A stretch of DNA of 49,314 bases from Nemertoderma westbladi. Lineage: Eukaryota; Animalia; Xenacoelomorpha. Below are positions 1 through 42,066 of the stretch, one piece after another. The notes beneath the pieces are model-generated. The model saw nothing but the letters and a program-made list of their open reading frames with translations, had not been told where the DNA came from and did no database searches. The position numbers were made by a program, and so were the translations under genes. The stretch spans positions 1 to 49,314 of the forward strand of contig JAUCBJ010006572.1 of NCBI GenBank assembly GCA_032718475.1. Reading direction: 5' to 3'. Within the stretch, counting starts at the first letter, position 1. Each line of letters opens with the position of its first letter.

Positions 1-2429
1 CGGCAGAAGCAGAAGCAGAAAGAAAGGCAGCAGCGGCAGAAGCAGAAGCAAAAGGAAAGGCAGCGGCGGCAGATGCAAAAGCAGCAAAGGCAGTGGCAGA
101 AGCAGAACGGAGAGCCGCTGAGCAGACTACCCAACTGGAGTTGGAAAATCTGCAAGAGACACAAGACAGTATAAATAAACAGTTTACTGCTAATCAAATG
201 CAAATGATGAGAAAATCTACTCCCAAGCGCCAGGGATACACATCCTCGGAGGAAGGCGAGACCACCGATCCTGAAGGCGGAGGAAATAGATCTCATCTAA
301 GTAGGCGTAGAAAAACATCTTACCGTCGCAAATTGCCTGATTTGCCCCCAGCTGTTAAAAGACAGCTAACTAGCACAGACTTAGGTAGTGCAGAACCCAT
401 AGAACAATTTATCCAGGTCAAAAGACTCCCTACTATAGTCGATGAACCTGAAATCATTAGGCCTGTTGTTCCCAAAGTCACTTCTGTGCTAGAGACCCCT
501 ACACTTCTAGAGCTTAACTCTAAATTCCCTTTACATAGTACTACACTGCCTGTACCCGGTGGAACAGTCCATGCAAATACCCCTGTCCAGACAGCAGAGA
601 GAGAAATCAATAATTTGTCTCCCGTCGTCCCGCGTCAGCCCGCTACTATGTTGGCGACTCCCGCTTCGGCGGTTGAGTGGGTGGAGGAGGGACGGCGGGG
701 GATGAATCTCCTGCTGGGACAGATGCAGGAGACTGTCCACCAACTTAAGGGAACAGTGAGGGAAGGTAGAGCAGAGTTGCAAGAGGTGCAGCAAAGTATC
801 GCACTAGAACGCGACAAATTAGTCAATATCCAAAAGGGCATACCAATAACCCCTGTAACATTGTGTCAACCCGTTAGGTCTGAAGTATTACATGCGCAAG
901 GTGTGGAGCCTACACGCATCTATACTGCTAGTGAAGTTGAAACTCCTATAGCAAACCCTATTAAGGGTGATTATAGGCCTGTTATTAATGATATTCCCTA
1001 TAGAACTGATAATGATCCGAGAAATTTATATACCGATAATTCGATATTAAATAACACGATGGCCCAAGAAAGCTTTACGCGGCAGATGGCTAGAACAGAA
1101 GCCCGCCAAGTGGTCAAAGTGGGAGAGATCGTCAAATTCAATGGAGATGAGATGAAATGGTTACCTTTCAACGAATATTACAAAGATAGCATACAGAACT
1201 CTGTACTATCTAACGGAGATAAACTTAGATTCCTCATCAAATGTTTGGAAGGACCTCCCAAGTTAATGGCGTTAAAGTTTATTGGACATCCAGATGGATT
1301 AAGACAAGTTTGGGATACACTAAACATCAGGTATGGTAACAAGGATAACATAGCTAAGTATTTGTATGCAAAATTAGTAGCCCCTCGACACTTCCTTAGT
1401 AGCGGGATTATAGAGTTTTCCGATGAGATTCAAGAGATCTGTAGACAATTGGACTGGTTAGGTAAGTCTCATGAATATCAGAGTTCCATGGTTATTGGAG
1501 CCGTAGTCTCTACTTTACCAAAGGGTGGAGTATGTACACGCTGGGACAAGAAAGTGTTGTACATGAACGAACAACAACGACGAAGTCCTACCATGGCTGA
1601 TCTCATGTCCTTCTTAGATAGTGAAGTAAAATTACAACTCATAAGGCAGTCCAGAGAGAAAACATCGGAAAATAAGGTAAGTGAGAAACCCGTTTCTAGG
1701 AGAAGGATAATACCAGTGTGTTATACTGACGACGGCGAAAGCCAAGCTTCTCAAGAAGAGGACAGCGGGAAAGACACAGCAAAATCTTACTATGACAACA
1801 AGACCTATAAAGACGTAAGTAAATACAAGTCTCGAACCAGTGACAGGAGAGAACAGGTAACTACAACTCCTCCTACGTCTCCTAAGAGAATTCACGGAAG
1901 AAAGCCCGAAGAAAGAACGAGAGTGCATAACGTTAACCAAGTTAAGGTGAGTAACATCAAACCAAAATGTGCGCTGTGCGACGGGCCCCACCGTTTGAGT
2001 GCGTGTGCTGAATTTCTAAAGAAATCCCCTGTAGACAGACGTACAGTCCTGTGGAATAAGCGGTTATGCTATAATTGCCTCAGATCAGGACACCAACGGC
2101 GAACCTGTTACTCCGACGTAAAGTGTGCAAAGTGTGGCGCGAAACATCACATCTTGTTACACAGTGAGTTCGAACAAGACAACCCGAGTCAGGTAAGTGA
2201 GCCCGAACTACATGTCCAATTCAGTGATGTGAACGACACTGACCAAGGTTCTGAGTGGGAAGGATTCTATACAGACGAATTCTCCGATGCCAACGAATCC
2301 TGTTATCTAATAAATACCACAGTGTATCGAGCACTTACGGATGAAAAGGACACTGACGAGTTTACTCCAACTCCTTTTGACAAACAACCATCTTGGAAAG
2401 TTCCAACTTCCAACATAGGAATAAGATAA
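1..2429 (+). CDS. BEL/Pao Gag (partial, N-terminus outside window), ends at a premature TAA
   Basis: KFNGD..W..F...L....KL.FL...LEG capsid-like region; CALCDGPHRLSAC, CYNCLRSGHQRRTC, CAKCGAKHHILLH. TAA at 2427-2429 corresponds to Glu (GIREFP) in copy 2. Confidence 0.88.
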   Translation, partial: AEAEAERKAAAAEAEAKGKAAAADAKAAKAVAEAERRAAEQTTQLELENLQETQDSINKQFTANQMQMMRKSTPKRQGYTSSEEGETTDPEGGGNRSHLSRRRKTSYRRKLPDLPPAVKRQLTSTDLGSAEPIEQFIQVKRLPTIVDEPEIIRPVVPKVTSVLETPTLLELNSKFPLHSTTLPVPGGTVHANTPVQTAEREINNLSPVVPRQPATMLATPASAVEWVEEGRRGMNLLLGQMQETVHQLKGTVREGRAELQEVQQSIALERDKLVNIQKGIPITPVTLCQPVRSEVLHAQGVEPTRIYTASEVETPIANPIKGDYRPVINDIPYRTDNDPRNLYTDNSILNNTMAQESFTRQMARTEARQVVKVGEIVKFNGDEMKWLPFNEYYKDSIQNSVLSNGDKLRFLIKCLEGPPKLMALKFIGHPDGLRQVWDTLNIRYGNKDNIAKYLYAKLVAPRHFLSSGIIEFSDEIQEICRQLDWLGKSHEYQSSMVIGAVVSTLPKGGVCTRWDKKVLYMNEQQRRSPTMADLMSFLDSEVKLQLIRQSREKTSENKVSEKPVSRRRIIPVCYTDDGESQASQEEDSGKDTAKSYYDNKTYKDVSKYKSRTSDRREQVTTTPPTSPKRIHGRKPEERTRVHNVNQVKVSNIKPKCALCDGPHRLSACAEFLKKSPVDRRTVLWNKRLCYNCLRSGHQRRTCYSDVKCAKCGAKHHILLHSEFEQDNPSQVSEPELHVQFSDVNDTDQGSEWEGFYTDEFSDANESCYLINTTVYRALTDEKDTDEFTPTPFDKQPSWKVPTSNIGIR

Positions 2430-3365
2430 TTTCCTGTAGTGCAAGTTCGAGTTCATGGTCCCAACAAGAGTTACATAGTGAACGCCCTACTTGACTCCGG
2501 CAGCACAGGAACATTCATCGATCAAGAACTAGCCGAAGATATCTTTGCTGGACAACCCAAGTTCCGGACTAAATTGAATATGTCAGGAATTATACAGGTT
2601 TGGAAATCTACCATAACGGCAGATTACTATGTAGGTGCGTTGTCCACCCCCCAGGATAAATTAGGAGCACAAAGTATAAGGTCAGTAAAAATGGTGGCTA
2701 TAAAGAACTTCGCTACTACCCAAGCAGACCTTTATAATTGGGACGAGGATGAGAGCATCCAACATCTTAAGATACCTCGATTCCAGACAGATTATCCTGG
2801 AGTGCAAATACTCATCGGCCAAAACGCGCATGAAGCGCTAGAGACATTGGAGAAACGGCCTGCTCAACCACAGCCACTACAAACTTATGCGGTAAGAACT
2901 AGAGTAGGTTGGTACTTCACTGGCCCTTCCCGTAGAACTCTCAAAGAGAGATTACCTCAACAACAGGTATACCAAGTAAAGGAATGGGAAGTGGAGAGCA
3001 GTGATGTGGACGATCCAACTGAGGGAACACCATACTCCTCAGATAATGACGATATTAACTCCAATGTAGATCAATGGAGACATTGCCTTGGGATGATTAA
3101 TCCAGCCGACATCGCTTCCAGAGGAGCAACTCCTCAAGAACTGATAGATACTCCAGGCTGGTTAGGTGGATCCGACTCCTTAAGTAAAGAAGAAGAAGAA
3201 TGGCCTCCTCATCTTACCACGGCAGAAATTAGACAGGCCAAGGGAGCGGAGAAAGTAACACAACAACTCAATCGCCCAGCTAGTCGTTTATGTTACTGGA
3301 AAGAGACCGAAAACTGTCCGAAAACTATGGAAGGCAAGATACTCTTCCTACGACTACTTCCCTAA
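2430..3365 (+). pseudogene. Aspartic protease fused by deletions to short RNase H-region and integrase C-terminal remnants
   Basis: ALLDSGSTGTFI and ILIG protease motifs. Junction near 3058 jumps to DQWRHC..NPADIASRG; junction near 3257 jumps to TQQLNRP, as read against copy 2. Confidence 0.88.
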
Positions 3366-3926
3366 TCCGACAAATATCTAGGGACTCCATAACGTGATAG
3401 CATGTGGAGTGGGCGTGTGACTATATCATTTTATATTTGTTTATTTTATATTTATGTATGTATTATTATGTACTTTATTATAATCGTTTTTATTTAATTT
3501 TATTTAGTAAAATGTTATTTTAGAATGTTTAGTAGATTAGTGCAATATATTAGTGTTTATTACGTACATAATTACTTATAATATATTTAGTGCGACGGCA
3601 AGAAGTAATTATTTTCTCTTTCCTTACTGTCCGTATTATATTATAAATGCGAGACTATAGTAAGATGACATGTCAGTACTTCTTAAAGTACAATAAAGCC
3701 ACTACTATATTTAAGTATTATTGGTAGGCAGAGTATTAGGAATGCAAAGTTCAGATCCTCGTGTCTCGGCTAAACCAAGCTCTGGGTAGACCTTGGAAAC
3801 GACTTGCCTCTTCACACTGACATTGCTTCGTGCGATATTGCTCTTCTACCTTATAACAAATAATACATATAGTAGCGTGATGTCCCTCTAACAGTAGCGT
3901 AAGTCGCAAATAAATCTGTTAAACTT

Positions 3927-4200
3927 TTGACCATCTGTAATTCTAGTCGATTAAGATATCGTGGCACCCACCGATATACTTGAAAGACAAATTCTAGAAT
4001 CAGTGGTTAACGTCCCCAGACAAGTTCTGGAATAAATCGGTGCCCATCCTAAATATTAATTTAATATTTATTAAAATCTGTAAAATTCAGATCCGTTAAC
4101 AATTCTAGTCGATTAAGATATCGTAGCACTTACCGATACTCTTAAAAGACAAATTTCATAGAATTAAGGATCCTATGTTCCCAGACCTGCTCTGGAATCA
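3927..4200 (+). repeat. Two ~160-bp-spaced direct repeats, each a long predicted stem-loop, in the pol/extra-ORF spacer
   Basis: AATTCTAGTCGATTAAGATATCGT at 3939 and 4101, each followed by a CCAGA-N5-TCTGG hairpin. The same pair is present in copy 2 at ~29740-30075. Confidence 0.85.
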
Positions 4201-5013
4201 AATTGTGTCAATTTTAACATCAAATAATAAAATTCACGGGAATAAATTTAAATTCATATTCGAATGAATTTCATAAATTGTCATTTTGTGCAATTTACAA
4301 CATTCCCAAAATTCCAGTAATTAATAGATCATGGGAGCGGAGATTCATATTGAGTGTACTAGAGTGCGAGAATCTCCAATATATAGTCAATAGCCGATAA
4401 AATTTATAAAATCAAGCATAAAGAGAAGATTGACAATTAAAGAATTACTATTAAATACCATCCCAGATCTGTATACATGAGAATTGCCCTAATTCTACCG
4501 CTAGTTTTCCATAATGTCACCATGGCAACACCCACGCTAGAATTAGAAGCAAGTTAAAGGAACAATAAAAAGCTTGCCCCATTGCGTAGCATAAGAGTAT
4601 ACACAGCGCACTATTAGTATCCAAGGATACATAGTAATAACGTGACATTCTGGATGACACTGACTAACGGACAAATGGCATGCATGTGTGTAGTAAGTAA
4701 TGATTGTATGGAATTTGTGCGTTTATAGGTGAATGTTACTACTAAAGTGTGTTTACAGTAGATAATCGCAATTGTAAAGTAGCCCTAACTCTACCGAGAT
4801 AACTTCAAGTGGATTCAAGCTTTTGGGACGGACAGTGGTGGGACTTGTGCCGGTTATCGTTGTCGTGCTGTTGCTACATGTTGGCGTAAACACTGCGAAA
4901 ACGGTACATCGGCGCTGAGAAACCCACTGTCCGGGGGCAAAGTCTAGTAGGCAGCGACGCCCGCTTGCCTAAATATTAACTCATACTGATATTAATAAAC
5001 TCAGATAGCAGAT

Positions 5014-6462
5014 ATGACGGAATTGATAGAAGATGACTTTGGTATTAGAAAGCGATATACTCTACCTTTACAAGCGTTTGTGGATAGCTTGATACGCGGT
5101 GAAGCCGATCCGACTATTACGGAGGACGATGGTCGTTATATCGAACCGCCGATGTCCCAAGAGCAACTTACGCGTGAATTGGACTATCGAAAATTAACCG
5201 CTCGCTATACGCATCGTAATGGTACGTATATGGACTTCTTAACTACTGGCCATCCTATCGATTTACATGATACGGACGAGGTAGACACCGAAAGGGAAAT
5301 GGTTCTATTTAAATATCATACCCAGCGGCGTCGTAACGATAAAACGAGAATAGATCACGAAAATTCTATTCGTAACAGACTGGGAAGACGAACCAATATG
5401 TCTAGAATCTGAGGAGATTCAGCCTATCGCGCTCGGAACAGCGACAACGATTACATCCTAGAATGGTATCAAGGTCCACAGTGTCTCACTGCGTACGATT
5501 ATCGCCATGCCAACTATGTTTCTCGGCAACGTTGTCGGTTATGCGCATCGAGAGACCATGTTACGCCCATGGACACAAACGTCCGCTGTTCCTATTTCCC
5601 CGAACAACCGGCGATGGAAATTTATTGCGCGTATTGCAGATTTAATAATTTGCACATTTTTGCGGTTTGCCCTCAATTTATGACTCAATGCCATCATTGT
5701 CAATTAAAAGGACACGCCAGCTTTGATTGTCCCTTTAACCATGATTTAGAGAGCATAGATGAAATGATTGTACTACGTTATATCAGAGCTTGGGAAGCGA
5801 ACGCTGATTTACATTGTGATTCACGCCATCGCTATTATCCTGGACGCGCTTACGAAGGAGTTTATGCGTTCCATCCTTATTTGTTTGCCTCCGTCGAGCA
5901 GAAATCACGCCTATCAAGTTATGAACTACTGAAGCGCGTTGGAGAATGTATTTCAACCAAATATGTACGCAAATTTCTCAGGAGCATTAATCCGAGTGAC
6001 ATCCATTCTTACAACTTAATAAACTTTATCCGTCAAGACCCTGCCTATGGAGACTTATTCGTCAACTCACACCCTGAGTTACAAGAAGTATATCGACGGC
6101 CTTACGAGTACCGAGCCCGCGAACGCGAGTTGGAAAGAACCATTAAACCAAGGAAGTTTCTAACTACCTATGGTCCACCCACGGCCCTCGTGCAGACCAC
6201 TCGTACAGGACCCGTAAGAGCGGCTGTCTTGAAACGAGCTCTCAAAGCCGTTAAACCCCTCTCCCCGGACGTTGATGTCAATCAACCCGGTACTTCGACC
6301 GGCGGATATACCGATCGCAATCCCATACCTTCTGATGCAATCATATTGCACCCTTCACCCAGGAGTTATAGCCCTCCTCGTAAAGTGGCTCGCCCCAAAG
6401 AGAAAAGGACTCTTGCTAGCTTTAAAAAACTGCGTAAACGCCGTCCGCGCAAGAAAGACTAA
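5014..6462 (+). pseudogene. Extra ORF of the BEL element (unknown zinc-knuckle protein), one in-frame TGA at 5410-5412
   Basis: ORFs 5014-5412 and 5569-6462 are in the same frame and 5413-5568 is open (GDSAY...CRLCASRDHVTP). Motifs CRLCASRDH, CAYCRFNNLHIFAVC, CHHCQLKGHASFDC; C-terminal KKLRKRRPRKKD. Homologous N- and C-termini occur in copy 2. Confidence 0.8.
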
Positions 6463-6540: not shown

Positions 6541-7738
6541 TGTAAAAGCTTTTGTGGGATAACTGATACGTTTGCCTTTGCTGGCCAGTTCCCCCCCAGT
6601 CGCTAGAATACTCTCAAAGGGATTTATAACTAAAATAGTGCAAGCTACCAGCTTATTGGCTGATGTGCTGTACGGAGATATCTGGGCTCAGTTTAATCGG
6701 CCAACTAGCTTAGAGAGGTTGCCTAAGCCTTGCTGTCCGTGTCGGCCAATAGAATTTGCGTAGGCGTTGATTTCGACCTATCCCAGCGCTACTGAACTGA
6801 ATTTCCTATCTCTATGCTCATCCTCTGTGTTGAACGGGGCTTCGTGGAATAAGGGTTTTTGGTATACTCGTATAGTAGTAGTAGTCTTATGATTTTATAG
6901 GATTCTGTTGTTGTGTTCCCATTTTCGCCATAACACCGGCTTTTTGGGAAGAACTCTAGTAAAACTGCTTGAATTATCGAAAGTATAAACTGTTACCTAA
7001 CTAACCTACCGATCAATCTAATCAATCAACCTACCTATTAATCATATTGTTTGTACTGTTATTTACCGTCAGTTATTAATTGTACCTATTTGTTGATGGA
7101 AATATTGCTCTTTGGATAATACGGATAAATCACCCAAATTTCCCAATTTTCTTGATACACTACAGGTTAGAGAGGCGGGCTATATATATAACAATTGCGA
7201 TTTATATTAATGTGGTGTGTATTGAATCTAATGTTATTTAGCAGACCCTACATAAGTCAATTGCTGCTCTCTTTATGTGTGATCAAATATACTGACGGTC
7301 GGCAGAATAGTGTGTATGATTGTGATTGGTAACAAAGTATTTCCTAAAGAATACGCTTTATACTTTAATCATAAGCAGTATCGTTGCGTTTAGTATAAGT
7401 CCTAGTTCTGTTTAAATAGATAGAGCGCCACGTCCTAAAGGAACTGTTAATATTTCCCGAAAGCCAATAATATCTGTCAGGAATTAATTATTAACGATCT
7501 ATCGAATAATACAGTAAGTTTACGCTGCAACCTTACACTGCAATAATAAAATTTAAGCAGCCGAATTCAGCCTCCCGGGTGTAGATCCATCGGGTGAATG
7601 ATCGCGCATGGGCTGACTTCGGCTAATGTTTTGTGTATTAGCATAAAATATTGTCGTATGCTAAAGGTGTTTTAATTAACTAAAAGACATATAAATTTTG
7701 GCAGGTTAAACTGCTAAAGGTCTTCAAAAGCGCGAACA
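6541..7738 (+). repeat. 3' LTR of BEL copy 1 (~1198 bp)
   Basis: Starts TGTAAAAGCTTTTG after purine-rich GGGAGCGG (PPT-like) and ends AAAAGCGCGAACA; both termini match the copy 2 LTR termini. Confidence 0.9.
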
Positions 7739-26100: not shown

Positions 26101-27280
26101 TGTTCGCGCTTTTAGACCTTTAGCAGTTTAACCCGCCAATTTTAGGTGTCTTCTAGTTTATAAATCGACTTTAGCCTATAACAAGTATTTGTTGCATATA
26201 AAGTTACATTAGCCGAAGCCAGCCTATGCGCGACCATTCACCCACAGTTAAGGGAGACTGGATTCGGAGGCTTTGACCTTATTGCGGTGTAGACTTACTG
26301 TATTATTCGATTGCTCGTTACTATAATATCTCTGACAAATATTATTTACTTTCGGGAAATATTAACAGTTCCTTTAGGACGTGGCGCTCTAAATATGTAA
26401 ACAGAGTTATGACTTACACTAAACACAACGGGATGGCTAATGATTTTCGTATAAAGCGCATTCTTTAGGAAATGCTTTGTTATCGGTCACACTCCTGCAC
26501 ACTACCGCACACTGCTGCACACTGATCTGCCGACCTTCACTAAACTTGATCATATATAAGGAGAATAGCAACTGACACATGTAGGGATTATGAAATAGCA
26601 TTCAATTCACCCCAAAACCACTATAATGTAAGTCGCAGTTGCTACAGGTAACTGGTCCCTCTTACCTTCAGTATATCAAGAAGATTGGGGTTTTATGATT
26701 ATTTATCGATGTTCTCCAAATATAACAACATATCCACCAACATATCCACAATTAATAACCGACAGTAAACAGATATGTATGGTTCGTGTGTACTGTGTAC
26801 TGAGTCTGCGTAAATTGTGTGGTTTGATAACAGTTATACGTTCCTATAATCAAAGCCGTCGAATGTTTGGCTAAAGTCTGAAACTCAGAATAATTCCAAA
26901 GCCGATGTTCTGGGGCTCAGGAAAAGGTAAACAAAGACCGTCATGCATTGCGCGATTTCCCGTAGGCTTCTGTGCAAATAAAATGAAAATCGCTCTGATT
27001 GGTCGAGTGAGCTGAACAAAGAGAGTTAAGAAAGCTCCACATCGACATCAAAATCAGCTGATAGATTTCGTCATCTGAACCACACTGTATTAAGAGTATT
27101 TTGGCGTATTGCGGCATAAAATGGCTTGTTATGTCCGCTAAAGTACACATACAGAAAAATGGCTTTTTATGTCCTCTAAAACACCTACACAGTAAGAAAA
27201 ATGGCTTTTTATGTCCGCTAAAACACCTACACAGTACTTTGCGGGGAAAATGACTAGTTATATCCACAAAAGCCTTTACA
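26101..27280 (-). repeat. 3' LTR of copy 2 (1180 bp)
   Basis: Near-identical to 40889-42066 (roughly a dozen differences by eye); preceded on the - strand by GGGAGCAG. Confidence 0.97.
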
Positions 27281-27358
27281 CTGCTCCCAGAAAATGGGAT
27301 TTAATTCTATAAAATATAAAAAATCACAGTTTCTAAATATAAAAAATACTCTAAACAG

Positions 27359-28913
27359 TTAGTCTTTCTTGCGAGGACGGCGTTTACGCAGTTTTTTGAG
27401 GCTAGCAAGAGTCCTTTTCTCTTTGGGGCGAGCCACTTTACTCGGAGGGCTATAACTCCTGGGTGAAGGGTGCAATACAATTGCATCAGAAGGTTTAGGG
27501 TTACGGTCGGTGTATCCGCCGGTCGAGGTACCCGGTTGATCGGTATCAACCTCAGTGGAACGAGGTCGAACAACCTTGAGAGCGCGTTTTAAGACAGCAG
27601 CTCTTACTGGTCCCTGACGGGTCGTTTGCACGAAAGCGGTAGGTGGACCGTGTGTAGTGAGAAATTTCCTCGGTTTGATGATTCTTTCCAACTCGCGTTT
27701 TCGGGCTCTATCGGAATCGATATGCTTCCTCTCGAGCTGATTTTCCTCAGCTTATCGTTGGAAGCATTCGTCCAAAACTCTTGCAGAGAGTAGGGTCGTC
27801 CAAGTTCGATATCTTCTTAGAGATTCTGGATTTCCCGATCGAACTGAGATAAAGCTAATTCGTTGACCGCTTGGACTTGCGGCTGCAATTTACATTTCTC
27901 CAAACAATCGTAGGTTCCTTTTCCGATCCTTTGTCGAATAGTGTCTAACGCGTTTTGTTCAACTCTCTCCTCCACCTCGGTGACAGGTTGTATCGGGGTT
28001 AGATCGGGACGATTATACGGGTTGAACGGCGATATTAGGTGTCCACGTCCCAATCCGGCTAGGTAAGATGGGCAAATATCTAGGGAGCCCACAACCGGAG
28101 TGCCACCGACTAATTGTTCGGGTAATAGTAGATCTTTGAACAGTGAGTACAGTTCGGCAGGATCTGTGATACTATTAGGATCAAGAGTCTGAGGTCTCAC
28201 TAGGGAGTGAGGAGGTCTGACCGAGTATTCCAGAACTCTGATCATAGGTTTATTTAAGGATCATTTGAGTCGAGCGAGCGTAGGTGATACATCGAACAAG
28301 TTTCGCTCGAAACTCCCGTAAATATAGCGAGTAAAACTGTGCTTAGAGCAACATCTCCGCGGATGTTTATGTCTTTCCGTTTGTTGGTTGGGTCTTGGGC
28401 ATTCATCGCAATAATACCAAAGACGCACGTCTTGTAGGGGAAACGCGGGTGATCTTTCTACAGTTTTACAATGTTTCTCTCAAGAATTCCAAATATTATG
28501 TTGGAGTCACCGCGTTTATCCGGTTCTTTAAAGTCTTCTCTTTCGAGTCGATTTCGAATATAATTTTCGCATTCGATTCTCAGTTTATCGTTCTGACTCC
28601 GCTGGGTATGATATTTAAATAGGACTATTTCCCTTTCGGTGTCGACATCGTCCGTATCGTGTAAATCGATAGGATGACCAGTAGTTAAGAAGTCCATATG
28701 CGTACCATTACGATTCGTATAGCGAGCAGTGAATTTTCGATAGTCCAATTCACGAGTGAGTTGCTCCTTGGACATTGGCAGTTCGATATAACGACCATCG
28801 TCCTCCGTAGCAGTTGGACTAGCGTCGCCGCGTATTAAGCTATCAACAAACGCTTGCAACGGTAGAGTATATCGCTCCCTGATACCAAGATCATCTTCTA
28901 TCAACTCAGTCAT
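27359..28913 (-). pseudogene. Extra ORF of BEL copy 2 (fragmented; zinc-knuckle segment absent)
   Basis: MTELIEDD N-terminus and ...KKLRKRRPRKKD C-terminus match copy 1. The middle (~28540-27710) is absent from copy 1 and is broken by stops and frameshifts. Confidence 0.8.
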
Positions 28914-30634
28914 AGCTGCTATATGAGTTTATCAATATTATAATTAGTTATAATTAGGCTAGCGGGCGTCGCTGCCTACCCCTCACGTCCCCCGGACAGC
29001 GCAAGATCCTCAGCGCTGATGTACTGTCGCCGCTGTGCCTATCGCCAACATAGTAGCTGCACAACGACAACAACAACCAGCGCGAGTCACTCCACTGTCC
29101 GTCCCAAGGGCTTAGATTTACTTCAGGTTCTTACTGCAGAGGTAGAGCTACTTTCACAACTGCGACTCGCTACTGTAAACACACTTTAGTAGTAACATTC
29201 ACCTATAAACGCACAAATTCCACACAACTGTCACAAACCGCACACATTCGGGCCATTTGTCCGTTAGTCAAGTGCCTTCCAGAATGCCACGTGATTATTA
29301 TGTATCCTTGGATACTAGCAGTGTGCTATTTATTCCTTATGCTATTCAATGGGGCAAGCTTTATTGTTCTTTTAACTCACTTCTAATTCTAGCGTGGTTG
29401 TTGCCATGGTGACATTATGGAAAGCTAGCAGTAGAATTAGGGTAATTCTCATGCATACAGATCTGGGATGCTATTTAATAGTAATTCTTTAATTGTCAAT
29501 ATTCCTCTTTATACATGATTTTATGAATTTTATCGGCTATTGACTATATATTGGAGATTCTCGCACACTAATACACTTAATAGGGTGAATCTCTGCTCCT
29601 ATGATCTATTAATTAATGGAATTTTGGGAATGTTATAAATTGTATAAAAATGACAATTTATCAAATTCATTAAAAAAGATGAATTTAAATTTATTCCCGT
29701 AAATTTTATTATTTATCATTAAAACAGACATAATTTTATTCCAGAGCATGTCTGGGGACTAGGATCCTTAATTCTAGGAAATTTGTCCTTTTAAGAGTAT
29801 CGGTAAGTGCTACGATATCTTAATCGACTAGAATTTTAAAGGATCTAAAATTTAACAGATTTTAATTTATAGATTTTCTAGAGTTAACTTTTAAGTATTT
29901 ACTCTATTGTATTTGTTTGACAGATTTTATAAATATTAATAGTTAATATTTAAGATGGGCACCGGTTTATTCCAGAACATGTCTGGGGACGTTAACCATT
30001 GATTCTAGAATTTTGTCTTTCAAGTATATCGGTGGGTGCCGCAATATCTTAATCGACTAGAATTACAGATGGTCAAAGGGTTTAACAGATTGATTTGCGT
30101 TTTACGCTACTATTAAAGGGACATCACGCTACTATATGTATTATTTAATATACGGTAGGAGAGCAATATTGCAAGAAGCAATGTCAGTGAGAAGAGGCAA
30201 GTCGTTTCCAAGGTCTACCCAGAGCTTGGTTTAGCCGAGACACGAGGATCTGAACTTTGCATTCCTAATACTCTACTTACCAATAATACTTGAGTATAGT
30301 AGGAGCTTTATTGTACTTTAATAAGTACGGATATTTCATCTTACTGTAGTCACGTATTTATATTATGATACGGACAGTAAGGAAAGAGAAAAAGAATTAT
30401 TTCTCGCCGTCGCACTAAATATATATAATATAAGTAATTAAGTAATAAAGACTAATATATATTGCACTAATCTACTAAATAATCGCTAAAATAACATTCT
30501 ACTAAATAAAATTAAAGAAAACGATTATAATAAAATTACATAATAATACATACATAAATATAAAATAATAAAAACAAATATAAAATAATATAAACTAAAT
30601 ATATAAACTAAAATAACACCCACTCCAGACGCTG

Positions 30635-33600
30635 TTACGTTGGGGAGTCCCTAGATGTTTGTTGGATTAGGGAGGTGGTCGTGGGAAGAGTATCTTGCCT
30701 TCCATAGTTTCCGGACAGTTCTCGGTCTCTTTCCAGTAAACATAAACAACCAACTGGGCGATTGAGTTGTTGTGTTTCGAACACAATTCCAGGTTTCTTA
30801 AAGTTACGTCGCATGATGACGAGTTCTACCGATCGCACCAAACCATCATCTGAGATATGAGTCTCGATGATACGACCTGTCTGCCACCGCTTACGTGGAA
30901 GATCTGATTCCACAATAAGGACCATGTCTCCGGCGCTGACGTTTTCTTGCTGCGCAAACCACTTAGTTCAAAGTTGTAGCGTAGGCAGATAATGTTTTTC
31001 GAAATGGTCAGCGAAACGACGGGATAACAACTGCATAAGTTGCCAAGTTTGCCGGCAGTATTCGTCTCCGTCCGTGATTTGCGATCGTGGGAGCATGGCT
31101 ACAGGTTTCTTCAGTAGGAAGTGCGCGGGTGTTAGCGCTTCCAGGGAATCAGGACTCGATGAGACTGGCATAAGCGGTCTCTCGTTGAGATAGGCGGCGA
31201 TTTCCTCCATTAACGTCCGCAAAAGTTCGTCGGTGAGATACGCGCGGCACGGCACTATAAAGTGAAATGCGGTCTTCACGCTCCTGATTAATCTCTCCCA
31301 ACTTCCTCCCCACCAAGGGGCGTCGGCGGCGTTGAAGGTCCAGCTAGACGCTGTTACCCTTAGCTGATCGTCCACCTGTCTTTGGTTCCAATCTTTGACG
31401 TAAGCCTTGATTTCATTGTTGGCACCAATGAAGTTCGTCCCCTTATCAGATCTCATCGTGTTGCTAGTTCCAAAGCGAGCGATCTGTCGGCGTAGACTCA
31501 GTATGAAGCTGTTGGTAGATAGATCGTTCACCATATCGAGATGGATAGCTCTACAAGTCATACAGACAAAGATGACACACCATCGCTTAACTATAGTCCT
31601 GGCACGATATACTTCAATAGGGCCAAATAAATCCACACCGGTATTAGTAAATGGTGGTTCATAGAAGCTTACGCGTTCCCTAGGTAATTCTGCCTCTCGC
31701 TGTGTTAAAGGCCTACTGAATGCTTTCCTACAGGGTATACAGTTCCTAAGAACTTGGTTCAGAGCTCTACGGGGTTTATGAAAATAATAGCGAGTTCGAA
31801 TTTCGCTAAGAAATCGTTCTCTACCAGCATGGTAAAGCTTACTGTGAACAATCATCTTGATTTGTATTTCAAGATTTCTAATGAGTATGGGAAACTTAGT
31901 GTCAAAGGATAATGGAGCATTAGTTAGTCTTCCTCCAACGCGTATTAACCCATCTATCATTGTGCTAGAGAAATGATCCCTTAAGCGCATCTGTGGATTT
32001 CTCAACAACAGGAAATACTTATCGGAATCCTCATAGCATTGCAGGAGTCTCAGTATCTGCTTATTGGTTTCTTCATGCTCCTGGTAACTGATCTTCTCCG
32101 TCAGAAACCTATCTGATACTTTGTATTGGGGAAGATCTTTAATAGCATGGACCTGTGCAGATGTCAGTGGAGCGGTATCACTAGCGATCTTCGTCCTGGA
32201 GTAGTGATGATGAAAACATCGCTTTAAATAAGCAACGGCCTTACAAAGCCGATTCCAGGAGCTATAGTGATGTATCGCTCTCTGCAGGAGAGGTGAGAGT
32301 CCTTGCGAGACGTCTGGTGTTCCAGATTTCCAATCTCTCTCTCTGATTTCCACAACAGACTTATTTGTGGCTGGGGATTTTGGATCCAAAGCGTCGTCTC
32401 CGGAAGTGTGTAGTACAGACAGATCTATCACGGGTTTAAATAACTTCGATTTACTCGCCCGGGTTTTAGGTTTGACTTTCTCCGCTCCCTTGGCTTGTCT
32501 AATCTCTGCCGTGGTAAGATGAGGAGGCCATTCATCCTCTTCCTTGCTTAGGAAGTCGGGTCCACCTAACCAGTCTGGAGTATCTATCAGTTCTTGTGGA
32601 GTTGCTCCCCTGGAGGCGATGTCGGCTGGATTAATCGTCCCAGGGCAATGTCTCCATTGATCTATCTTCGTGCGACTAAGTATAATGGCTACTCTGTTGG
32701 TAACGAAGACGCTGAACTGACAGACTTCATTGGTTATATACTCCAACACGAGTAAAGCATCGGTCCAATAGACAGTTTTCTCCAGTGGATAGTCGATCTG
32801 TTCTGTTACATTCTGGCCGATGGCTGTAGCGTATAGAGCCGCTTTTAACTCCGCTCGAGGAACTTTCAACTTGTTGTTTATCAAGGCCTTAGAGGTAACC
32901 AAGGCGACCTTAATTCCATCCGGAGATTCAACCCTCAGGTAGGCTACTATACCTATTCCCATGTCGCTGGCGTCTCCAAACACATGGAGTTGATAGGAAT
33001 ACGTGGGGAGAACGTGACCAAAATAAGAACGGGAAATCGTAAAATTCTCGATGGATGGTAGAGAATCTTCCCATTTCATCCACTTCTTTAATAGTTCTCC
33101 CTTAAGTGGATCGTCCCACGAGTGGTTTTCAAGCCTCATTTGTTGTACTAAACTCCGAGCAATCAATATAACTGGGCTGATAAATCCCAATGGATCGAAA
33201 TAAGTGCTCAGGATACTTAGACAAATCCGTTTAGTTCGAATTGGATTATATCGCTGTTTTAGCTGGAAAAACAGGATATCTCTCTCCGTGTCCCATTTCA
33301 AACCAATCGTCTTGGTTTCTGGAAGATCATCCTTGATAAGGTCTAGATCTTTAACTCCTCGGTCTTCTAACGGGATCGATTCCAGAAATTCACGGGAGTT
33401 ACTGGTGAATTTAGTTAATCGAAATCCACCTCTTTTCAAGCACTCTACCATTCCTTTGGCGACATCAATGGCTTCTTCCACCGATGGGAGGGACTTTAAA
33501 TTGTCGTCCATGTATATATCCCATTTGATGTTGTCGATCACCTCTTTGGAGAAGGCGTCCCGGTTGTCATCAGCAGTGGTGCGCACTACTGAGCAGGCGT

Positions 33601-36600
33601 TTGAAGGGCTCGAGATGATCCCAAAAGCCTGGATGGTCATCCAGTACTCCACCGGTTTCTGGTTGAGGTCTCCTTCAGGCCACCACAGAAATCGTAGGCT
33701 GTCCCGATCCCTATCCAGCGCCTTAACTTGTAAGAACATGCCTTCTATATCGGAGGCGAAAGCGATCAAATATTGTCGTAATCTTAAGAGTATTCCCAAC
33801 AAGGATTGGAGTAAGTTGGGTCCCGCAACAACTCGGAGTTAAGGGATTGGCCCATGTAGAGGGCGGAGCCGTCAAATACTACCCGGACTTCGTTGGGTTT
33901 ACCGGGTTTGGGAACGTAATGATGTGTTAAATAGTACGTTCTCTCAGTTATAGGTGTTTCTTCCGGTACTCGCTCCGCATATCCCTTGTCAATGAATTTC
34001 TTCAGCTGGGTCTTGTACATCTCCTTAGCTGAAGCATTTGCCGTAAGGCGTCGATGTAGTTGCGCAATTCTCTTCTCCGCCAAGGGTCGGTTGTTTATAA
34101 AATTGGGTTCTCGCCGTCGGAAAGGCAGACCAATCTCATACCTACCTTGATCTTTAAGAAAATGTGTAGTCGTTTCCTGTATCTGCTTGGCTCTTTCTTC
34201 TTCTACCGATAGGGCCTTATCGTAGGAATTGGGCTCTACAGCCTCTTGAGTAAAGAATCGTACGGCGTGTTCATCGCGAGTCTTCGCGTTGTAACGATCT
34301 ATCACTTCATTCAGTTCGTCGTTGTAATCGACTTGTCCCGCTGGATGGATGAGGTGACACAGGTTCACTTGGTTTTGCCAAGTTTCATTTTCCGTAAGGA
34401 GGTTGATCGTATTCTCCTCGTCGAATAGTTGATGAATATCGTCATTATCTGAGGAGTATGGTGTTCCCTCAGGTGTGTCGTCTCCCTCACTGATTTCCCC
34501 TTCCCATTCACTCACCTGGTAGACTTGCTCTTTAGGTAGCCTTTCCATGAGAGTCCTACGGGAAGGTCCAGTAAAGTACCAACCTACTCTAGTTCTTCCC
34601 GCATAGGTTTGCAGTGGTTGCGGTTGAGCAGGCCGTTTCTCTAATGTCTCAAGCGCCTCATGCGCATTTTGGCCGATGAGTATTTGTACCCCTGGGTAGT
34701 CGGTGTTGAATCTAGGTATCTCATGCTGCTGGGTGAAATCGTCTTCATCCCAGTTATAAGGTTCCACTTGGCTGGTAGCGAAGTTCTTTATCGCCACCAT
34801 TTTTACTGACCTTATACTGTGTTCTCCTAGTTCATCCTGGGGGGTGGACAACGCGCCTACATAGTAGTCTGTAGCTACTGTAGATTTCCAAACCTGCATA
34901 ATTCCTGAAAGGTTCAACTTAGTTCGGAACTTGGGTTGTCCAGCAAAGATGTCTTCGGCTAGTTCTTTGTCGATGAATGTTCCTGTGCTGCCGGAGTCAA
35001 GGAGGGCGTTCACTATATAGCTCTTTTTTAACCCATGGACTCTCAACTGCACTACGGGAAATTCTCGAATTCCTACGTTGGAAGTTGGCACTTTCCAAGA
35101 TGGTTGTTGGTCAGGAATAGTTAGGGGGAGCTCACTATCGGTTTCAGTCTCATACGTAAGTGCTCGATACACTGCGGTGTTTATTAGATAACAGGATTCG
35201 TTTTCGTCGGAGAATTCTTCCGTGTAGAATCCTTCCATCTCAGAACTGTGGTCAGTGTCGTTCACATCACTGAATTGGACATGTAGTTCGGACTCACTTA
35301 CCTGACTCGGGCTGTTTCTTTCGAATTCGGTGTGCAATAAGATATGATGTTTCGCGCCGCACTTAGCACACCTTGCGTCGGAGTAACAGGTTCGCCGTTG
35401 GTGTCCTTGTCTGAGACAATTATAACACAACCGCTTATCCCACATGACTTCGCATCTATCTTTTAGGGATTTCTTTAAGAATTCCTCACACACACTTAAA
35501 CGGTGGGGCCCGTCGCACAACGCACATTTTGGTTTGATGTTACTTACTTTACCTTGGGTAGTGTTGTGCACACTCGTTCTTTCCTCGGGCTTTCTTCCAT
35601 GAACTCTCTTAGGAGACGTAGGAGTTTTTGTTACCTGTTCTCTCCTGTCACTGTTTCGAGACTTAGATTTACTTACGTCTTTAGGTGCCTTGTTGACATA
35701 GTAAGATCTTTTGGGGTCTTTCCCGCTGTTCTCCTCTTGAGAGGTTTGGCTTTCGCCGTCATCTGTATAACACACTGGGGTGACCTTTCTCCTAGAAACG
35801 GGTTTTTCAATTACCTTATTTTCCGGTGTCTTCTCTCGGGACTGCTTTAGGAGCTGTAATCTTACCTCTCCATTTAAGAATGACATGAGATCAGCCATGG
35901 TAGGGTCTCTTTGTTGCTGATCCATCATATAGAGCACTTTCTTGTCCCAGCGAGTACCTACTCCACCCTTTGGCAAAGTAGATGCTATGGCTCCAATAAC
36001 CATGGAACTCTGATATTCATGAGACTTACCTAGCCAATCTAATTGTCTACAAATCTCCTGGATCTCATCGGAAAATTCTATAATCACGCTGCTAAGAAAC
36101 TTTCGGGGCGCTACCAATTTCGCATACAAATACCTAGCTATGTTATTCCTATTACCATACCTGATGTTTAGTGTATCCCAAACTTGTCTTAATCCATCTG
36201 GATGTCCAATAAACTTTAACGCCATTAACTTGGGAGATCCTTCCAAGCAGTCGATGAGGAATCTAAGTTTCTCTCCGTTAGATAGCACAGAGTTCTGTAT
36301 GTTATCTTTATAATATTCATTAAAAGGTAACCATTTCATCTAATCTCCATTGAACTTGACGATCTCTCCCACCTTTACCGCTTGACGGGCTTCGGTTCTA
36401 GCCATTTGACGCGTAAAACTTTCTTGGGCCATCGTATTATTTAATATCGAGTTATCGGTATATAAATTTCTCGGATTATTATCAGGTCTATATGGAATAT
36501 CATTATCAACAGGTTTATCGTTACCCTTAATGGGGTTTATTATAGGAGTTTCTACTTCGCTAGCAGTATAGATGCGTGTAGGCTCCACACCTTGCGCATG

Positions 36601-38899
36601 AAATATTTCAGACCTAACAGGTTGACACATTGTTACAGGGGGTGATGGTATACCCCTTTGTATATTTACTAATTTATCGCGTTCTAAAGCGATACTCTGC
36701 TGCACTTCTTGCAACTCTAACCTACCCTCTCTGACTGTTCCCTTTAACTGTTGAAGAGTCCCTTCCATCTCCCGGACCTGCTGAGAGGAACACAAACAGT
36801 GTTCCCTCAGCTGCCCGAGCAGGAGACCCATCTCCCGCCGTCCCTCATCCATCCACTCTACCGCCAAAGCGGGAGCCACCAACATAGTAGCGGGTAGACG
36901 AGGGACGACGGGCGATAAATCGTTAATGTCTCGCTCGGCGTCCTGGACTGGAATTGACTCTGGAACAGTCCTACTGGGTACAGGTAGTTTAGTACTGTGC
37001 AAAGGGAATTTAGAGTTAGGTTCTGGAAGTACAGGGGTCTCTCACAGAAGGGGTGGCTTCGAGAACAGGCCTAATTATTTCAGGCTCATCTACTATAGTA
37101 GGGAGTCTTTCTACCCTAATAATTTGGTCTGTGGGTTCTGTACTACCTAAGTCTGCACTAGCTAGTTGTCTTCTCACAGCTGGGGGCAAATTAGGCAATT
37201 TCTGATGGTGAGGCATTCTTCTACGTCTGCTGGAACAAGATCTATTTCCTCCGCCTTCAGGATCTGTTGTATCGCCTTCATCAGATGATGTAAATCCCTG
37301 TCTCTTGGGAGTAGATCGACTTATCATCTGCATATACTTAGCTGTTCTTTGTTTATTGAAGTAATCTTGCTTCTCTTGAAGATTGTCCAACTCTAGTTGG
37401 ACTGTCTCTTCAGATGCCCTCCGTTCTGCTGCTGCCACTGCCTCTGCCGTTTTTCTTTCCGCTTCTGCCGCTGCTACCTTTCTTTCAGCTTCTGCCTCTG
37501 CCGCTGCCGTTGCCGCTGCCGCTTTTCTTTCCGCTTCTGCCACTTTTCTTTCCGCTTCTGCTTCTGCTGCTGCCGCTGCCTCTGCCGATGCCGCTGCCGC
37601 TTCCGCTGCCGCTTTTCTTTCAGCCTCTGCCTCTGCCGCTGCTGCTTTTCTTTCAGCTTCTGCCGCTGCCGCTGCAGCTGCCGCCTTTCTTTGAACTTCT
37701 GCCGCTGCCGCTGCTGCTACCTTTCTGTCTTCTATCCGTTTTTTCTTTAATTGTTCTTCCTGTTCCCTAACGAGGAGGATGCTTTCATCAAATTTAGCCT
37801 GCTCTGTGACTAATATTTCTGCATCTAATGCGTCTAACACAAATTTGGCTCCTTCACTAGTAGGGTGAAGTCCAGCCAGCCGTCTCCTCAACTCTTTGTC
37901 ACCTATAAATCGTTGATAGTCCGACAGATAGATGTCAATAGCGTCCTTCTTCTGAGGTTTCTCCAATGTCGCTTCGCTTTCCACTTGAGAAAAGGTAGCG
38001 TCTGTTGATTCTCCGTGGGTTGAGCGCTCAGCCAGCTGAATTTTCCACTGGGCCGTTCCTTGAACCTTGAGACCCACCCGCTGGAACCAAGTCTTTACGG
38101 CAACTTGCAACGACGTGTCTTGGCTTCTTTTCGAAGCTTCCTCAAAGGCCGATAGGATTAGTCTGATTCTTAGAATTCTTTCTCGAATTTGATAAAGCAG
38201 CTCTCCCTGCTCTTGAGGTCCTTGGGGTTGTTGAAACAGTTGTTCCTCTAATCGCTCCAAAGAGCTGAAGAATCCCTGTACATATCCTGCTGCCGACTTC
38301 TTCCACACAGCTGGATCTCTAGTGTCCCTTACCACTCCCATCCTGTATAAGTCCTCCCAGGCAGCTTCCGATAAGTTAAACGGGAGTCCGGGTCCGGGGA
38401 AGTTCCATTGCGTCTCGACAATAGACTTCAGTTCTTCATTCGTGTATCCCGCATAACTATCCTTGGTCGATCGCTTACTTCTCGCCCAATCAATTTGATG
38501 TTCTTCCACCGCAATCAATACTCTAGTGAGTATGGCTTCAGGAAGAATGAGAAGTGGATCCGAATAAACTGCATCTGCCATCTTTGCTCCGCGCTCGGGT
38601 GTCAACTCTACAGTATCTGAACTACTGGAGCTATCGGGCCGCTGAGAAATAAGTTCTCGGCTCGAGTGTTGCTGCTGTTTAACAGCTGCCTCTTGGTCCC
38701 GCTTGACTTGAGCCCGAGTGCCTATGATAGACCTACGGTGCTTTACTAGCCTAGGGTCTGATACTACTACTGGAGGGATGACCTTTCTTACAGTAGGAGG
38801 GGAGTTGAACTTCGGTCTCAAACGTTCCGCACTCCTATCTGGATCACAGATTGTTGTATCTAGGAGACTGTCTGACAGGTTTTGCTTTGTATCAGCCAT
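30635..38899 (-). pseudogene. BEL/Pao gag-pol polyprotein with frameshifts (~37040, ~33810) and stops (36340-36342, 30968-30970)
   Basis: Gag knuckles, LLDSGS, RVVFDGS, RT YMDD, RNase H FGDAS and NPAD, integrase H..H..CIPC, GVDLFGP, SDKGTNF, GGSWERLI. Confidence 0.95.
37420..37725 (-). repeat. Coding low-complexity repeat (AAAEAEAERK)n in Gag
   Basis: GCA/GCG/GAA-rich units; the homologous tract is at 1-115 in copy 1. Confidence 0.9.
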
Positions 38900-39033
38900 G
38901 TTTGTTTGTACAATTGAACGCTTACTGCTAGAACTACAGTTAAAGCAAGTCTAGTAATTCAGTATCAACTATAAGCCTAGTAATTAATTACCGATATCGT
39001 TACTCAGTGTAACGTGATATATACAATATATTA

Positions 39034-39290
39034 GAATACCGGTATACACTTATAGTATATAATATAAGTATTATTACAGACTAAGGTTCGTCACAGAATA
39101 CCGGTATATAATTTCAGCGCAAATATATATAAATATATAATAAGCCTACTGTGAATACCAGTATACAGTTCCACTTATAGTATATATAAGTATAATTATA
39201 GACTAGAATTAATTACAGTATACCGGTACATAATTTCAGCTTAAATTTATAGAGATAAATATAATAAGCCTATCGTAAATACCAGTATGT
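39034..39290. repeat. ~125-bp tandem duplication in the BEL 5' leader
   Basis: The CACTTATAGTATAT...TAATTTCAGC...ATAATAAGCCTA...AATACCAGTAT block occurs twice. Confidence 0.75.
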
Positions 39291-40888
39291 CAATTATTTT
39301 ATAATAACTGAATTTCTGAATTTTAGGGTTACTTTACGTTACTTTATTACCGTTATTTAAGCAGTAGTCCAACTGATATTAAGACCTAATTGATGGATGA
39401 CAGGCCTACTATTTTATAAATTGGCTTGAGTTGATTTATAATATATATATACCCGTTTAATGGGTTTTTGTTACAATATTTGAAATAAATGTTATTATTT
39501 CTAGGTAAGGAGTCACTTCACAGAAGCTGAACGCTCTCAGTGGAGTGCTACTTATTGGACACTAAAACAAATAATTCTAATTTACTAAGTTACTTATTAC
39601 TACAAATTACGTACAATTACTGTGTGAGATTACAATCTCTAAATAAACACAAAAGTTACACGTACAAATTTTTAGGGGTAATTTTACAGGAAATCTACAA
39701 ACCAGCCTAACAAGGGGTTAGAATTTCTGGTTCTTACAAACGGACAGGAAACTACGGTATTTGAAAATAATAAAGCAGTAGTAAATATATTGCGTTGTCT
39801 AGATAAGAAATTACCACCGTCTGACGACTTATAGTCTCTAGCTTTACAGCTCTATAAGTACTACGTTATGTACCCGGAATGTCCCTACCTAGAAGTTAAT
39901 TACCGCAGCCAACCATAGCTAACGTGCCTATTAACCACTTTACAACACAAATATACTGCCTACACACTAATTACCTTCGGAAAGCACTGTACACTAAACC
40001 CTAAATTAGGTACAAGTACTTATAGAACAAATAACCAGCAGTTAAAAATACTTGTACAGCTAAAAGAACCACAGTATCTGCTGGAGTGACTAGAGCATAA
40101 AATCACCAGTCTTTACCTACGCCAAACAGCCCTGATGTAGTACCGGGGTTAATTTAACTATAACGGTATGTATAACAAGCACAATTACTGTAGGAATAAA
40201 CTTGGGGTTGTGTATGTTGCGAATAATCGCATAAACTCTGAACAATAAATATTACGCTACCCGTACAGACTACACAAACAAAATACAGACCAAATGCTGG
40301 CAGACTACTATCAAGCCTAAATAAACTACAGTATATGCAGACTCCGAAATGGTTAGTTAGTATGCGTTCTAACTGAGTAGTACGACTTATTCTTTCGGGG
40401 GGGATTTACCTTACAGCACTGGATGCCCCCACGTTCCTAACTAGTACTTTATCGGACATACACTCTACACACACTGCAATCTCTTCGGACCTGACAACAG
40501 CCAGACAACAATCCAGCCTACAAATTACTTGTACAATCTGAGCAGGCTTACATGCTTTCTGCTCAATATTAACTTACAGATAAATAAAACTGACAGAAAT
40601 AAGTAAAATCCTAATAAAAAACCAGGGCTGCAGTCCCTGATTAAATATCAAGACCTACCGGTATATAATTATAAAAATCGAATAATACTGCTGTTCCTGT
40701 ACTGCTGTAAGTACCGGTTCGGGCAGTTGGGCAGTTAGGCCTACAGCTTACCGTTCGACCGGTACCTTCGACTTTATTGCCTACGTTGCAATAAAGAAAC
40801 TAAAATAACTGTTATTGTTCTTACCAGAACAATAGTAAACTGTATTTATTGTCTACTGTGCAATAAAGGAAAAATCAATAACTGTTAT

Positions 40889-42066
40889 TGTTCGCGCTTT
40901 TAGACCTTTAGCAGTTTAACCCACCAATTTTAGGTGTCTTCTAGTTTATAAATCGACTTTAGCCTATAACAAGTATTTGTTGCATATAAAGTTACATTAG
41001 CCGAAGCCAGCCTATGTGCGACCATTCACCCACAGTTAAGGGAGACTGGATTCGGAGGCTTTGACCTTATTGCGGTGTAGACTTACTGTATTATTCGATT
41101 GCTCGTTACTATAATATCTCTAACAAATATTATTTACTTTCGGGAAATATTAACAGTTCCTTTAGGACGTGGCGCTCTAAATATGTAAACAGAGTTATGA
41201 CTTACACTAAACACAACGGGATGGCTAATGATTTTCGTATAAAGCGCATTCTTTAGGAAATGCTTTGTTATCGGTCACACTCCTGCACACTACCGCACAC
41301 TGCTGCACACTGATCTGCCGACCTTCACTAAACTTGATCATATATAAGGAGAATAGCAACTGACACATGTAGGGATTATGAAATAGCATTCAATTCACTC
41401 CAAAACCACTATAATGTAAGTCGCAGTTGCTACAGGTAACTGGTCCCTCTTACCTTCAGTATATCAAGAAGATTGGGGTTTTATGATTATTTATCGATGT
41501 TCTCCAAATATAACAACATATCCACCAACTTATAACAATTAATAACCGACAGTAAACAGATATGTATGGTTCGTGTGTACTGTGTACTGAGTCTGCGTAA
41601 CTTGTGTGGTTTGATAACAGTTATACGTTCCTATAATCAAAGCCGTCGAATGTTTGGCTAAAGTCTGAAACTCAGAATAATTCCAAAGCCGATGTTCTGG
41701 GGCTCAGGAAAAGGTAAACAAAGACCGTCATGCATTGCGCGATTTCCCGTAGGCTTCTGTGGAAATAAAATGAAAATCACTCTGATTGGTCGAGTGAGCT
41801 GAACAAAGAGAGTTAAGAAAGCTCCACATCGACATCAAAATCAGCTGATAGATTTCGTCATCTGAACCACACTGTATTAAGAGTATTTTGGCGTATTGCG
41901 GCATAAAATGGCTTGTTATGTCCGCTAAAGTACACATACAGAAAAATGGCTTTTTTGTCCTCTAAAACACCTACACAGTAAGAAAAACGGCTTTTTATGT
42001 CCGCTAAAACACCTACACAGTACTTTGCGGGGAAAATGACTAGTTATATCCGCAAAAGCCTTTACA
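40889..42066 (-). repeat. 5' LTR of copy 2 (1178 bp)
   Basis: Near-identical to 26101-27280; CCAAT-like box and ~40-bp U3 repeats. Confidence 0.97.

Follow-up and report, generated by a model that had tools for sequence, protein, structure and literature searches.

A selected, non-env accessory region with two alternative middle modules in an unusually long BEL/Pao-type retroelement

According to the ICTV profile, BEL/Pao elements are 4.2-10 kb long and carry one to three genes, the third of which is env-like (PMC8742986). Several types of such an env-like third reading frame (ORF3) have been described: an F-type protein in roo, gB-like proteins in mosquito BEL elements and in Tas, and Gn-Gc in Atlas (PMC8742986, PMC13524379, PMC3118150, PMC9094657, from the sections of these papers that were available). 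The accessible portions of PMC3118150 and PMC13524379 present extra genes of BEL/Pao elements as env-type only; the supplement of PMC3118150 lists element sequences, and it may hold similar ORFs. No non-env accessory gene of a BEL/Pao element was found in the literature covered, which consisted mostly of non-subscription papers, with Repbase and supplements outside its scope. The ORF3s of the bdelloid rotifer elements Vesta and Juno comprise GDSL esterase, DEDDy exonuclease, coiled-coil and transmembrane types and are typically read from spliced messages, as far as the excerpted text of PMC5408684 goes. Non-env extra ORFs have also been reported for plant LTR retrotransposons, such as GENE23 of Grande and those of Retand and PvRetro13 (PMC7264820; also PMC8220671, both in part). 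The transposon proteins with proven anti-silencing activity that the available part of PMC6719617 cites are from plants.

The window analysed here, i.e., the whole stretch of 49,314 nucleotides from Nemertoderma westbladi, contains two copies of a retroelement with an extra region between pol and the 3' LTR (Table 1). A Pfam domain scan of this element returned DUF1759, an aspartic protease, Peptidase_A17, Integrase_H2C2 and DUF5641, in that order. Its Pol gave 117 matches at E <= 1e-50, nearly all with PF05380 and the best at 36 % identity; the named relatives are from animals, mostly aquatic ones. The Gag nucleocapsid of both copies has three Cys/His knuckles, which is the pattern of BEL/Pao Gag nucleocapsids. 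The LTRs of copy 2 have TGT..ACA ends, are flanked by a 5-bp target-site duplication and differ by 11 mismatches (~1 %); despite this small distance, several stops and frameshifts are present in the coding regions. BEL/Pao elements are characterised by a primer-binding site for tRNA-Arg or tRNA-Gly behind the 5' LTR and by a polypurine tract ahead of the 3' LTR. The first TGG lies ~60 nt past the 5' LTR of copy 2, no TGG-type primer site adjoining that LTR, and a purine-rich run of 8 nt precedes the 3' LTR. The length of the LTRs falls within the BEL/Pao range of 0.2-1.2 kb, and that of the entire copy 2 exceeds the range described for the group (PMC8742986). Because of this excess length, the element is classed as BEL/Pao-type by its proteins and not as a formal member.

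Table 1 Features of the two element copies in the window
Feature	Positions	Strand	Remarks
gag-pro and pol remnants, copy 1	1..3394	+	RT and integrase core deleted; non-autonomous
Non-coding spacer, integrase end to ORF-A	3366..5013	+	1.65 kb, ~90 % identical between copies
ORF-A, copy 1	5014..5412	+	132 aa, ATG to TGA; first 125 codons common to copy 2, 85 % identity
Type-1 middle module	5389..6112	+	ORF-A end, linker, three Cys/His clusters (~5533-5736), predicted helical region
ORF-B type 1, copy 1	5413..6462	+	Open for 349 codons, same frame as ORF-A; no ATG until 5569
Shared C-terminal part, copy 1	6113..6462	+	~115 aa, Pro/Ser/Thr-rich; 86 % identity to copy 2
3' LTR, copy 1	6541..7738	+	First ~500 nt unalignable to copy 2 LTR, remainder 72 % identical
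Copy 2, full-length element	26101..42066	-	15,966 bp; LTRs 1.18 kb
Shared C-terminal part, copy 2	27359..27708	-	
Type-2 middle module, copy 2	27709..28538	-	830 nt, broken in copy 2
ORF-A shared part, copy 2	28539..28913	-	Reading stops 23-26 codons further on

The contigs of four of 12 public runs (those named X1, X3, X4 and X5, X4 being guessed to be RNA) were aligned to each copy. The family is abundant: 20,873 contigs of run X1 fell on 4300-6800 and 5929 on 27600-28660. The leader of copy 2 measures ~1.9 kb. A long N-terminal extension of Gag carries an Ala/Glu/Arg/Lys repeat and differs in length between the copies (37400-37720 on the minus strand; 1-110).

The extra region of copy 1 (5014-6462, plus strand) forms a single reading frame, 483 codons long and interrupted once, by a TGA at 5410-5412; it starts with MTELIEDD and ends with KKLRKRRPRKKD. 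At local composition, the chance probability of an open frame is 3e-8 for 349 codons and 1e-3 for 132 codons. The gap from the stop of the region to the 3' LTR is 78 bp in both copies. A first-pass annotation of this DNA had described a sense ORF in the env position, with the same start and with an end ~80 bp short of the 3' LTR in each copy, and had read copy 1 as a single frame with one TGA and three Cys/His strings; measurement and retranslation agree with this description. Copy 2 (minus strand, 28913-27359) has only the first 375 nt and the final ~350 nt in common with copy 1. The 830 nt between them are unique to copy 2 and correspond to the ~275 codons that had been reported as missing from copy 1. 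The knuckles quoted for copy 1 are indeed absent from copy 2, as had been noted, but the latter is not free of Cys/His motifs, since one frame of its middle contains a different string, C-x2-C..H..H..CC..H, near 28410-28340. The type-2 middle of copy 2 carries a number of lesions: a frameshift near 28497, stops at 28261-28263, 27817-27819 and 27752-27754, and a frame change near 27773. The extra region has an acidic start and a basic end; 16 of the final 40 residues of the shared tail are K or R, and the terminus is identical in both copies.

Purifying selection acts on the parts common to both copies, as it does on gag. Differences between the copies were distributed over the three codon positions as 11/8/31 in the N-terminal part (p 8e-5) and as 11/7/35 in the C-terminal part (p 2e-6), and an arm of the spacer had no codon-position bias between the copies. 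The dN/dS of copy 1 vs copy 2 was 0.20 for the N-terminal part (CI 0.10-0.39) and 0.14 for the C-terminal part (CI 0.07-0.25); for gag the value was 0.19, and with the frame shifted it was 0.9-2.5. Absence of an intact ORF from every copy, with a dN/dS near 1, had been named in the first-pass annotation as speaking against the accessory gene; the dN/dS values of the shared parts lie well below 1. CpG-prone sites partly inflate dS (divergence at fourfold sites outside CpG contexts is 0.11-0.27, n=15-39), an effect that cannot create a frame bias. Among the 27 contig differences listed for the copy-1 frame, third positions accounted for 11 of the 16 variable and for 3 of the 11 near-fixed ones (Fisher p 0.054). 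For the middles, the third-position share of the listed variable sites was 5 of 7 in type 1 (p 0.045), a weak bias by which selection within this middle is weakly indicated, and 5 of 10 in type 2 (p 0.21, with 25 of the 40 listed entries used).

The region has the position and strand that env has in roo, Tas and mosquito BEL elements (PMC13524379, PMC8742986, in the sections available). It might accordingly be suspected to be a decayed or highly diverged env or a small fusogen, all the more as a hydrophobic, ATG-less stretch lies upstream of it in copy 1, at 4820-4890. Such an origin is scarcely credible. The region starts acidic and ends basic, it yielded no fusogen match in the sequence searches, and no signal or anchor segment was seen by hydropathy, the best 19-residue Kyte-Doolittle mean being 0.78; the earlier statement that signal peptide and transmembrane helix are lacking was thus reproduced. 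Protein, PDB-sequence and Pfam searches matched the region to none of the known env, Gag or LINE ORF1 proteins, in line with the non-env coding region proposed at first reading. The upstream stretch, a hydrophobic 19-mer followed by basic residues on the plus strand, was considered as a small membrane ORF and rejected as chance-level: it is interrupted in copy 2, lies where the spacer diverges fastest (76 %) and does not outscore frames that arise by chance in AT-rich spacer sequence.

The two middles, 724 nt in copy 1 vs 830 nt in copy 2, are similar in length and have no likeness, either as DNA or as six-frame protein. Each of them is multi-copy and occurs in thousands of contigs. The junction of the N-terminal part with the type-1 middle is spanned by an X5 contig with a depth of 2918 (5265-5520), with three differences and no gap. 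That of the type-1 middle with the C-terminal part is spanned, again gap-free, by an X5 contig with a depth of 1817 and 91 differences in 527 nt (17 % diverged) and by one more X5 contig, these type-1 crossings being drawn from the best 32 of 27,281 pieces. For the junction of the N-terminal part with the type-2 middle, the spanning pieces are X4 records 22 and 23 and, with a depth of 1692, X5 record 31; no spanning piece for the remaining junction, at 27708, was present among the best 32 of 8331. Loose ends at the junctions run into the middle of the other type, and none of those listed (best 24 of 619 and best 24 of 280) joins one middle to the other.

These observations bear on the proposal in the first-pass annotation that the complementary parts of the two copies derive from one ancestral ORF of at least ~750 aa containing both middles, each copy having lost one by deletion. 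Two overlapping deletions could produce the pattern seen in two copies, and a rare long form could have escaped contig pieces that, as listed, are all shorter than 810 nt (the best 24 of 619 and 24 of 280 being considered). With unrelated multi-copy middles of similar length, junctions crossed gap-free even in diverged contigs, and loose ends that lead from one type to the other, the joined ancestor is nevertheless very improbable. The type-1 middle occurs once in the window, and the contigs show it collinear in divergent copies, a pattern that a recent nested insertion would not produce. Loose ends in X4 and X5 (~6318 and 27717) indicate that a third arrangement may exist, with the type-2 middle attached to the tail ~190 nt further down; this fits a recombining, modular region.

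The TGA in copy 1, noted at first reading as the one stop in a single frame, is not private to this copy, as loose ends at 28539 in both X4 and X5 match 5389-5418 including the TGA. This evidence consists of one contig in each of two of the four runs, both from the best matches listed; the X5 loose end has the length expected of the contig with a depth of 2918, which provides most of the X5 depth in the bin (3876). Near-fixed contig differences from copy 1 were found at 11 other places in the frame and none at 5410-5412 (best 40 of 564). For type 2, copy 2 has a stop at 28466-28468, which is also seen in the loose ends of eight, seven and two contigs of X1, X3 and X5, respectively. The N-terminal reading of this type ends 26 codons past the junction in the frame of copy 2 and 23 codons past it at 28466-28468; the frameshift of one base near 28497 is private to copy 2. 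At 28261-28263 and 27752-27754, most contigs depart from copy 2, whose stops there have the look of decay; the stop at 27817-27819 is absent from the differences listed. Some contigs have one-base indels just past the stops (5433; 28333-28465), and the alignment of an X4 relative begins only at 5434. Judged from these contigs, both types have as a family trait a stop behind the N-terminal part. Because two unrelated types stop near the same junction (7 codons past it in type 1 and 23-26 in type 2), the simplest reading is that ORF-A, with 132 to ~150 residues, is complete in itself and precedes ORF-B, and the one-gene reading of the first-pass annotation is probably wrong.

A single accessory gene of ~480-520 codons with an exchangeable middle, in which the stop would be a lesion fixed in non-autonomous lineages or would be read through, is unlikely, although it deserves serious weight. 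In type 1 the frame is the same on both sides of the TGA, the 52 codons from there to the first ATG are open, as they would be in a single gene, and the first Cys pair lies upstream of that ATG, all of which counts against two genes. Copy 1 also lacks RT and integrase, so that selection on accessory genes may be relaxed in it, and the contigs examined gave no link of the stop to copies with an intact pol; the spread of a non-autonomous lineage could have carried a dead stop along. A single gene is harder to reconcile with the downstream module of type 2, which lies in a different frame from the stop-bearing one, and with two unrelated types that stop within so short a distance of the same junction. 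The codon score of the 52 codons after the TGA is weak (0.009 vs 0.074 for ORF-A). The base following the TGA is a purine, and neither a stable fold nor a read-through hairpin was found behind it (fold z -0.4 to +1.0), a context unlike that of known read-through signals.

The third knuckle of the type-1 middle has the canonical spacing C-x2-C-x4-H-x4-C, from which the other two deviate. Against Pfam it reached 18.7 bits with zf-CCHC_3 (cut-off 27; E 0.0017) and 9 bits with zf-CCHC (cut-off 20.8). Knuckles 2-3 align weakly with the Gag knuckles of the element itself (pairwise E 0.018-0.085, 22-24 % identity), and the neighbours of the type-1 module in the Atlas comparison were, among eukaryote matches, all tandem zinc-knuckle (CCHC) clusters, which with scores of 0.77-0.86 provide a lead only. 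Both results would suit a captured nucleocapsid-like piece, taken from the Gag or ORF1 of another retroelement and serving in the cytoplasm as a second RNA chaperone or a packaging helper instead of regulating in the nucleus. This origin is improbable, however: the knuckle spacing differs from that of the BEL triple knuckle, no capsid or protease domain adjoins the module, the conserved basic tail is common to the knuckle-less type, and the module found no match in a set of 1.84 billion representatives in which retroelement Gag proteins should be abundant.

Searches for relatives of the proteins confirmed none of 4468 candidates for the whole frame, read with X at the stop. No homologue of ORF-B type 1 was obtained among the 1.84 billion representatives, nor any of the ORF-A alignment among the seven candidates (lengths 68-231) from a word-indexed set of 5.8 billion; both proteins may thus be new folds. 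Of the pattern matches in metagenome and viral contigs, 0 of 206, 0 of 2 and 0 of 75 were confirmed as relatives; the PDB sequences contained no relative (best E 1.2), and the type-2 middle had no Pfam match. Since the sets searched are poor in animal repeat proteins, the absence of homologues is weak evidence. A single-sequence structure model of ORF-B had a pLDDT of 38.8. That of ORF-A (pLDDT 53) was uninformative, its best PDB-wide hit (Z 5.8) covering a two-helix hairpin only, and it had no match at E <= 0.001 in a viral structure library; the Atlas matches of ORF-A (0.84-0.88) are unnamed and below the trusted level. The basic tail is, we assume, similar to a nuclear localisation signal. 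A nuclear nucleic-acid-binding role is plausible for the zinc-knuckle version; that both types have one function is a guess, type 2 being without knuckles.

The spacer has no ORF of 50 codons common to both copies. A 3' splice site may be present just before the ATG of ORF-A, as judged from motifs by eye; a strict branch-point/pyrimidine/AG pattern gave no acceptor near either ORF start. The donor-like sequence AGGTGAATG is common to both copies, at 4727 and 29204, which is unremarkable because the spacer is 90 % identical between them. An Rfam search over 3300-7800 gave nothing beyond E 0.42. The spacer may hold a cis element. Downstream of the cassette, the U3 regions cannot be aligned (6565-7061 vs 27255-26770), and the internal regions of the copies are 83-87 % alike. 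Many contigs leave the copy-1 sequence at ~6554, and contig depth falls steeply in this part of the LTR. The difference in U3, in a comparison of two copies, is one sign that may point to self-specificity.

Some further observations were made in the window. The spacer (3366-5013; 28914-30634) contains internal repeats of 55-100 nt at 3939-4201, and in places it folds more stably than shuffled sequences, with z values of -2.5 to -3.4 at 3880-4160 and of -2.3 in copy 2 (~55 windows, uncorrected). An open frame of 1055 codons without a Pfam match is located at 16527-19694 (plus strand); by eye, we presume that this frame could be a DNA transposase. Behind it, at 19659-19960, comes a tandem array with units of 49 nt. 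Pieces of a Penelope-like element are present at 9130-12376 and 43431-44498, with an RT carrying DUF6451 and a GIY-YIG domain. A tandem array of more than 20 units of 36 nt, in which several frames are open, occupies 22950-23969.

Taken together, the extra region of this unusually long BEL/Pao-type element is a selected orphan cassette of non-env kind, built with exchangeable modules and differing in its anatomy from the first-pass description; its function is putative. The full reading favoured here, which we hold tentatively and at not quite even confidence, is that of a selected non-env cassette of two genes, ORF-A and ORF-B, the ORF-B product being likely nuclear and likely binding the RNA or LTR DNA of the element itself to promote its expression. 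The cassette would consist of a small shared ORF-A, closed by the stop after the shared N-terminal part as its true end, and of an ORF-B in which a front module that can be exchanged, either zinc knuckles or an unrelated domain, precedes the basic tail common to both types. Both would be translated from spliced subgenomic RNA, as is described for ORF3s in the available text of PMC5408684. Because no ATG occurs in ORF-B type 1 until past the first Cys pair, this frame needs splicing, read-through or a non-AUG start, and it might be joined to part of ORF-A in the manner of foamy Bet (PMC8003144, in part). The middle would have been exchanged by recombination between subfamilies. The tail would carry the ORF-B product into the nucleus, where the variable module would bind RNA or LTR of the element and so raise expression or blunt silencing. 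The module may also set the specificity for the cognate subfamily, an idea prompted by the fact that both types differ in their LTR U3 as well.

A more far-reaching form of this proposal, which we regard as distinctly unlikely, would make the family a 'complex' retroelement, with a two-gene regulatory cassette laid out like bel1/bel2 of foamy viruses, a constant ORF-A and nuclear tail, and modules matching the LTR of their own element. The product would then be a family-specific transactivator or anti-silencing factor and a new protein family; the linkage of module to U3 is hypothesised from two copies. If the cassette reading is true, BEL/Pao elements also evolve regulatory accessory genes and swap their working parts. 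Family-specific counter-defence would then become directly testable, as a single animal genome would offer two natural versions with different U3 regions. If the region is one broken orphan gene, it is a curiosity of one family.

Among known systems, the env-like ORF3s of BEL/Pao elements belong to the same superfamily and share position and strand with the extra region. The latter differs from them in showing no signal peptide or anchor by hydropathy and no fusogen similarity in sequence searches, and in likely comprising two ORFs. The rotifer ORF3s, on the evidence of the excerpts of PMC5408684, resemble it in being family-specific, interchangeable non-env ORFs past pol in LTR elements of animals. 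Enzyme homologues are recognisable among them, however, and whole ORFs differ, whereas here the middle differs between shared ends, the host is of BEL/Pao type and no homologue was found. The extra ORFs of plants also include some with nuclear products, but these are antisense and reside in Ty3/gypsy elements, as stated in the available sections of PMC7264820, while the present region is in sense orientation, in an animal, and has Cys/His clusters.

The layout is approached by that of the foamy viruses, in which, according to the part of PMC8003144 available, two accessory ORFs, bel1 (Tas) and bel2 (Bet), precede the 3' LTR, the second has no product of its own and is expressed spliced to the first, and the far part of bel2 is partly exchangeable between viruses. 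This likeness is an analogy of layout only: foamy viruses have an env and an internal promoter, and for the extra region no sequence similarity to them was found and splicing is only proposed. A model for a module that matches its U3 may be seen in VANC of the Arabidopsis VANDAL elements, accessory protein variants of which act only on the cognate family (PMC6719617, in the sections available). VANC belongs to a plant DNA transposon and has a demonstrated activity, whereas the extra region, to which it has no similarity that could be found, is given such a role by hypothesis.
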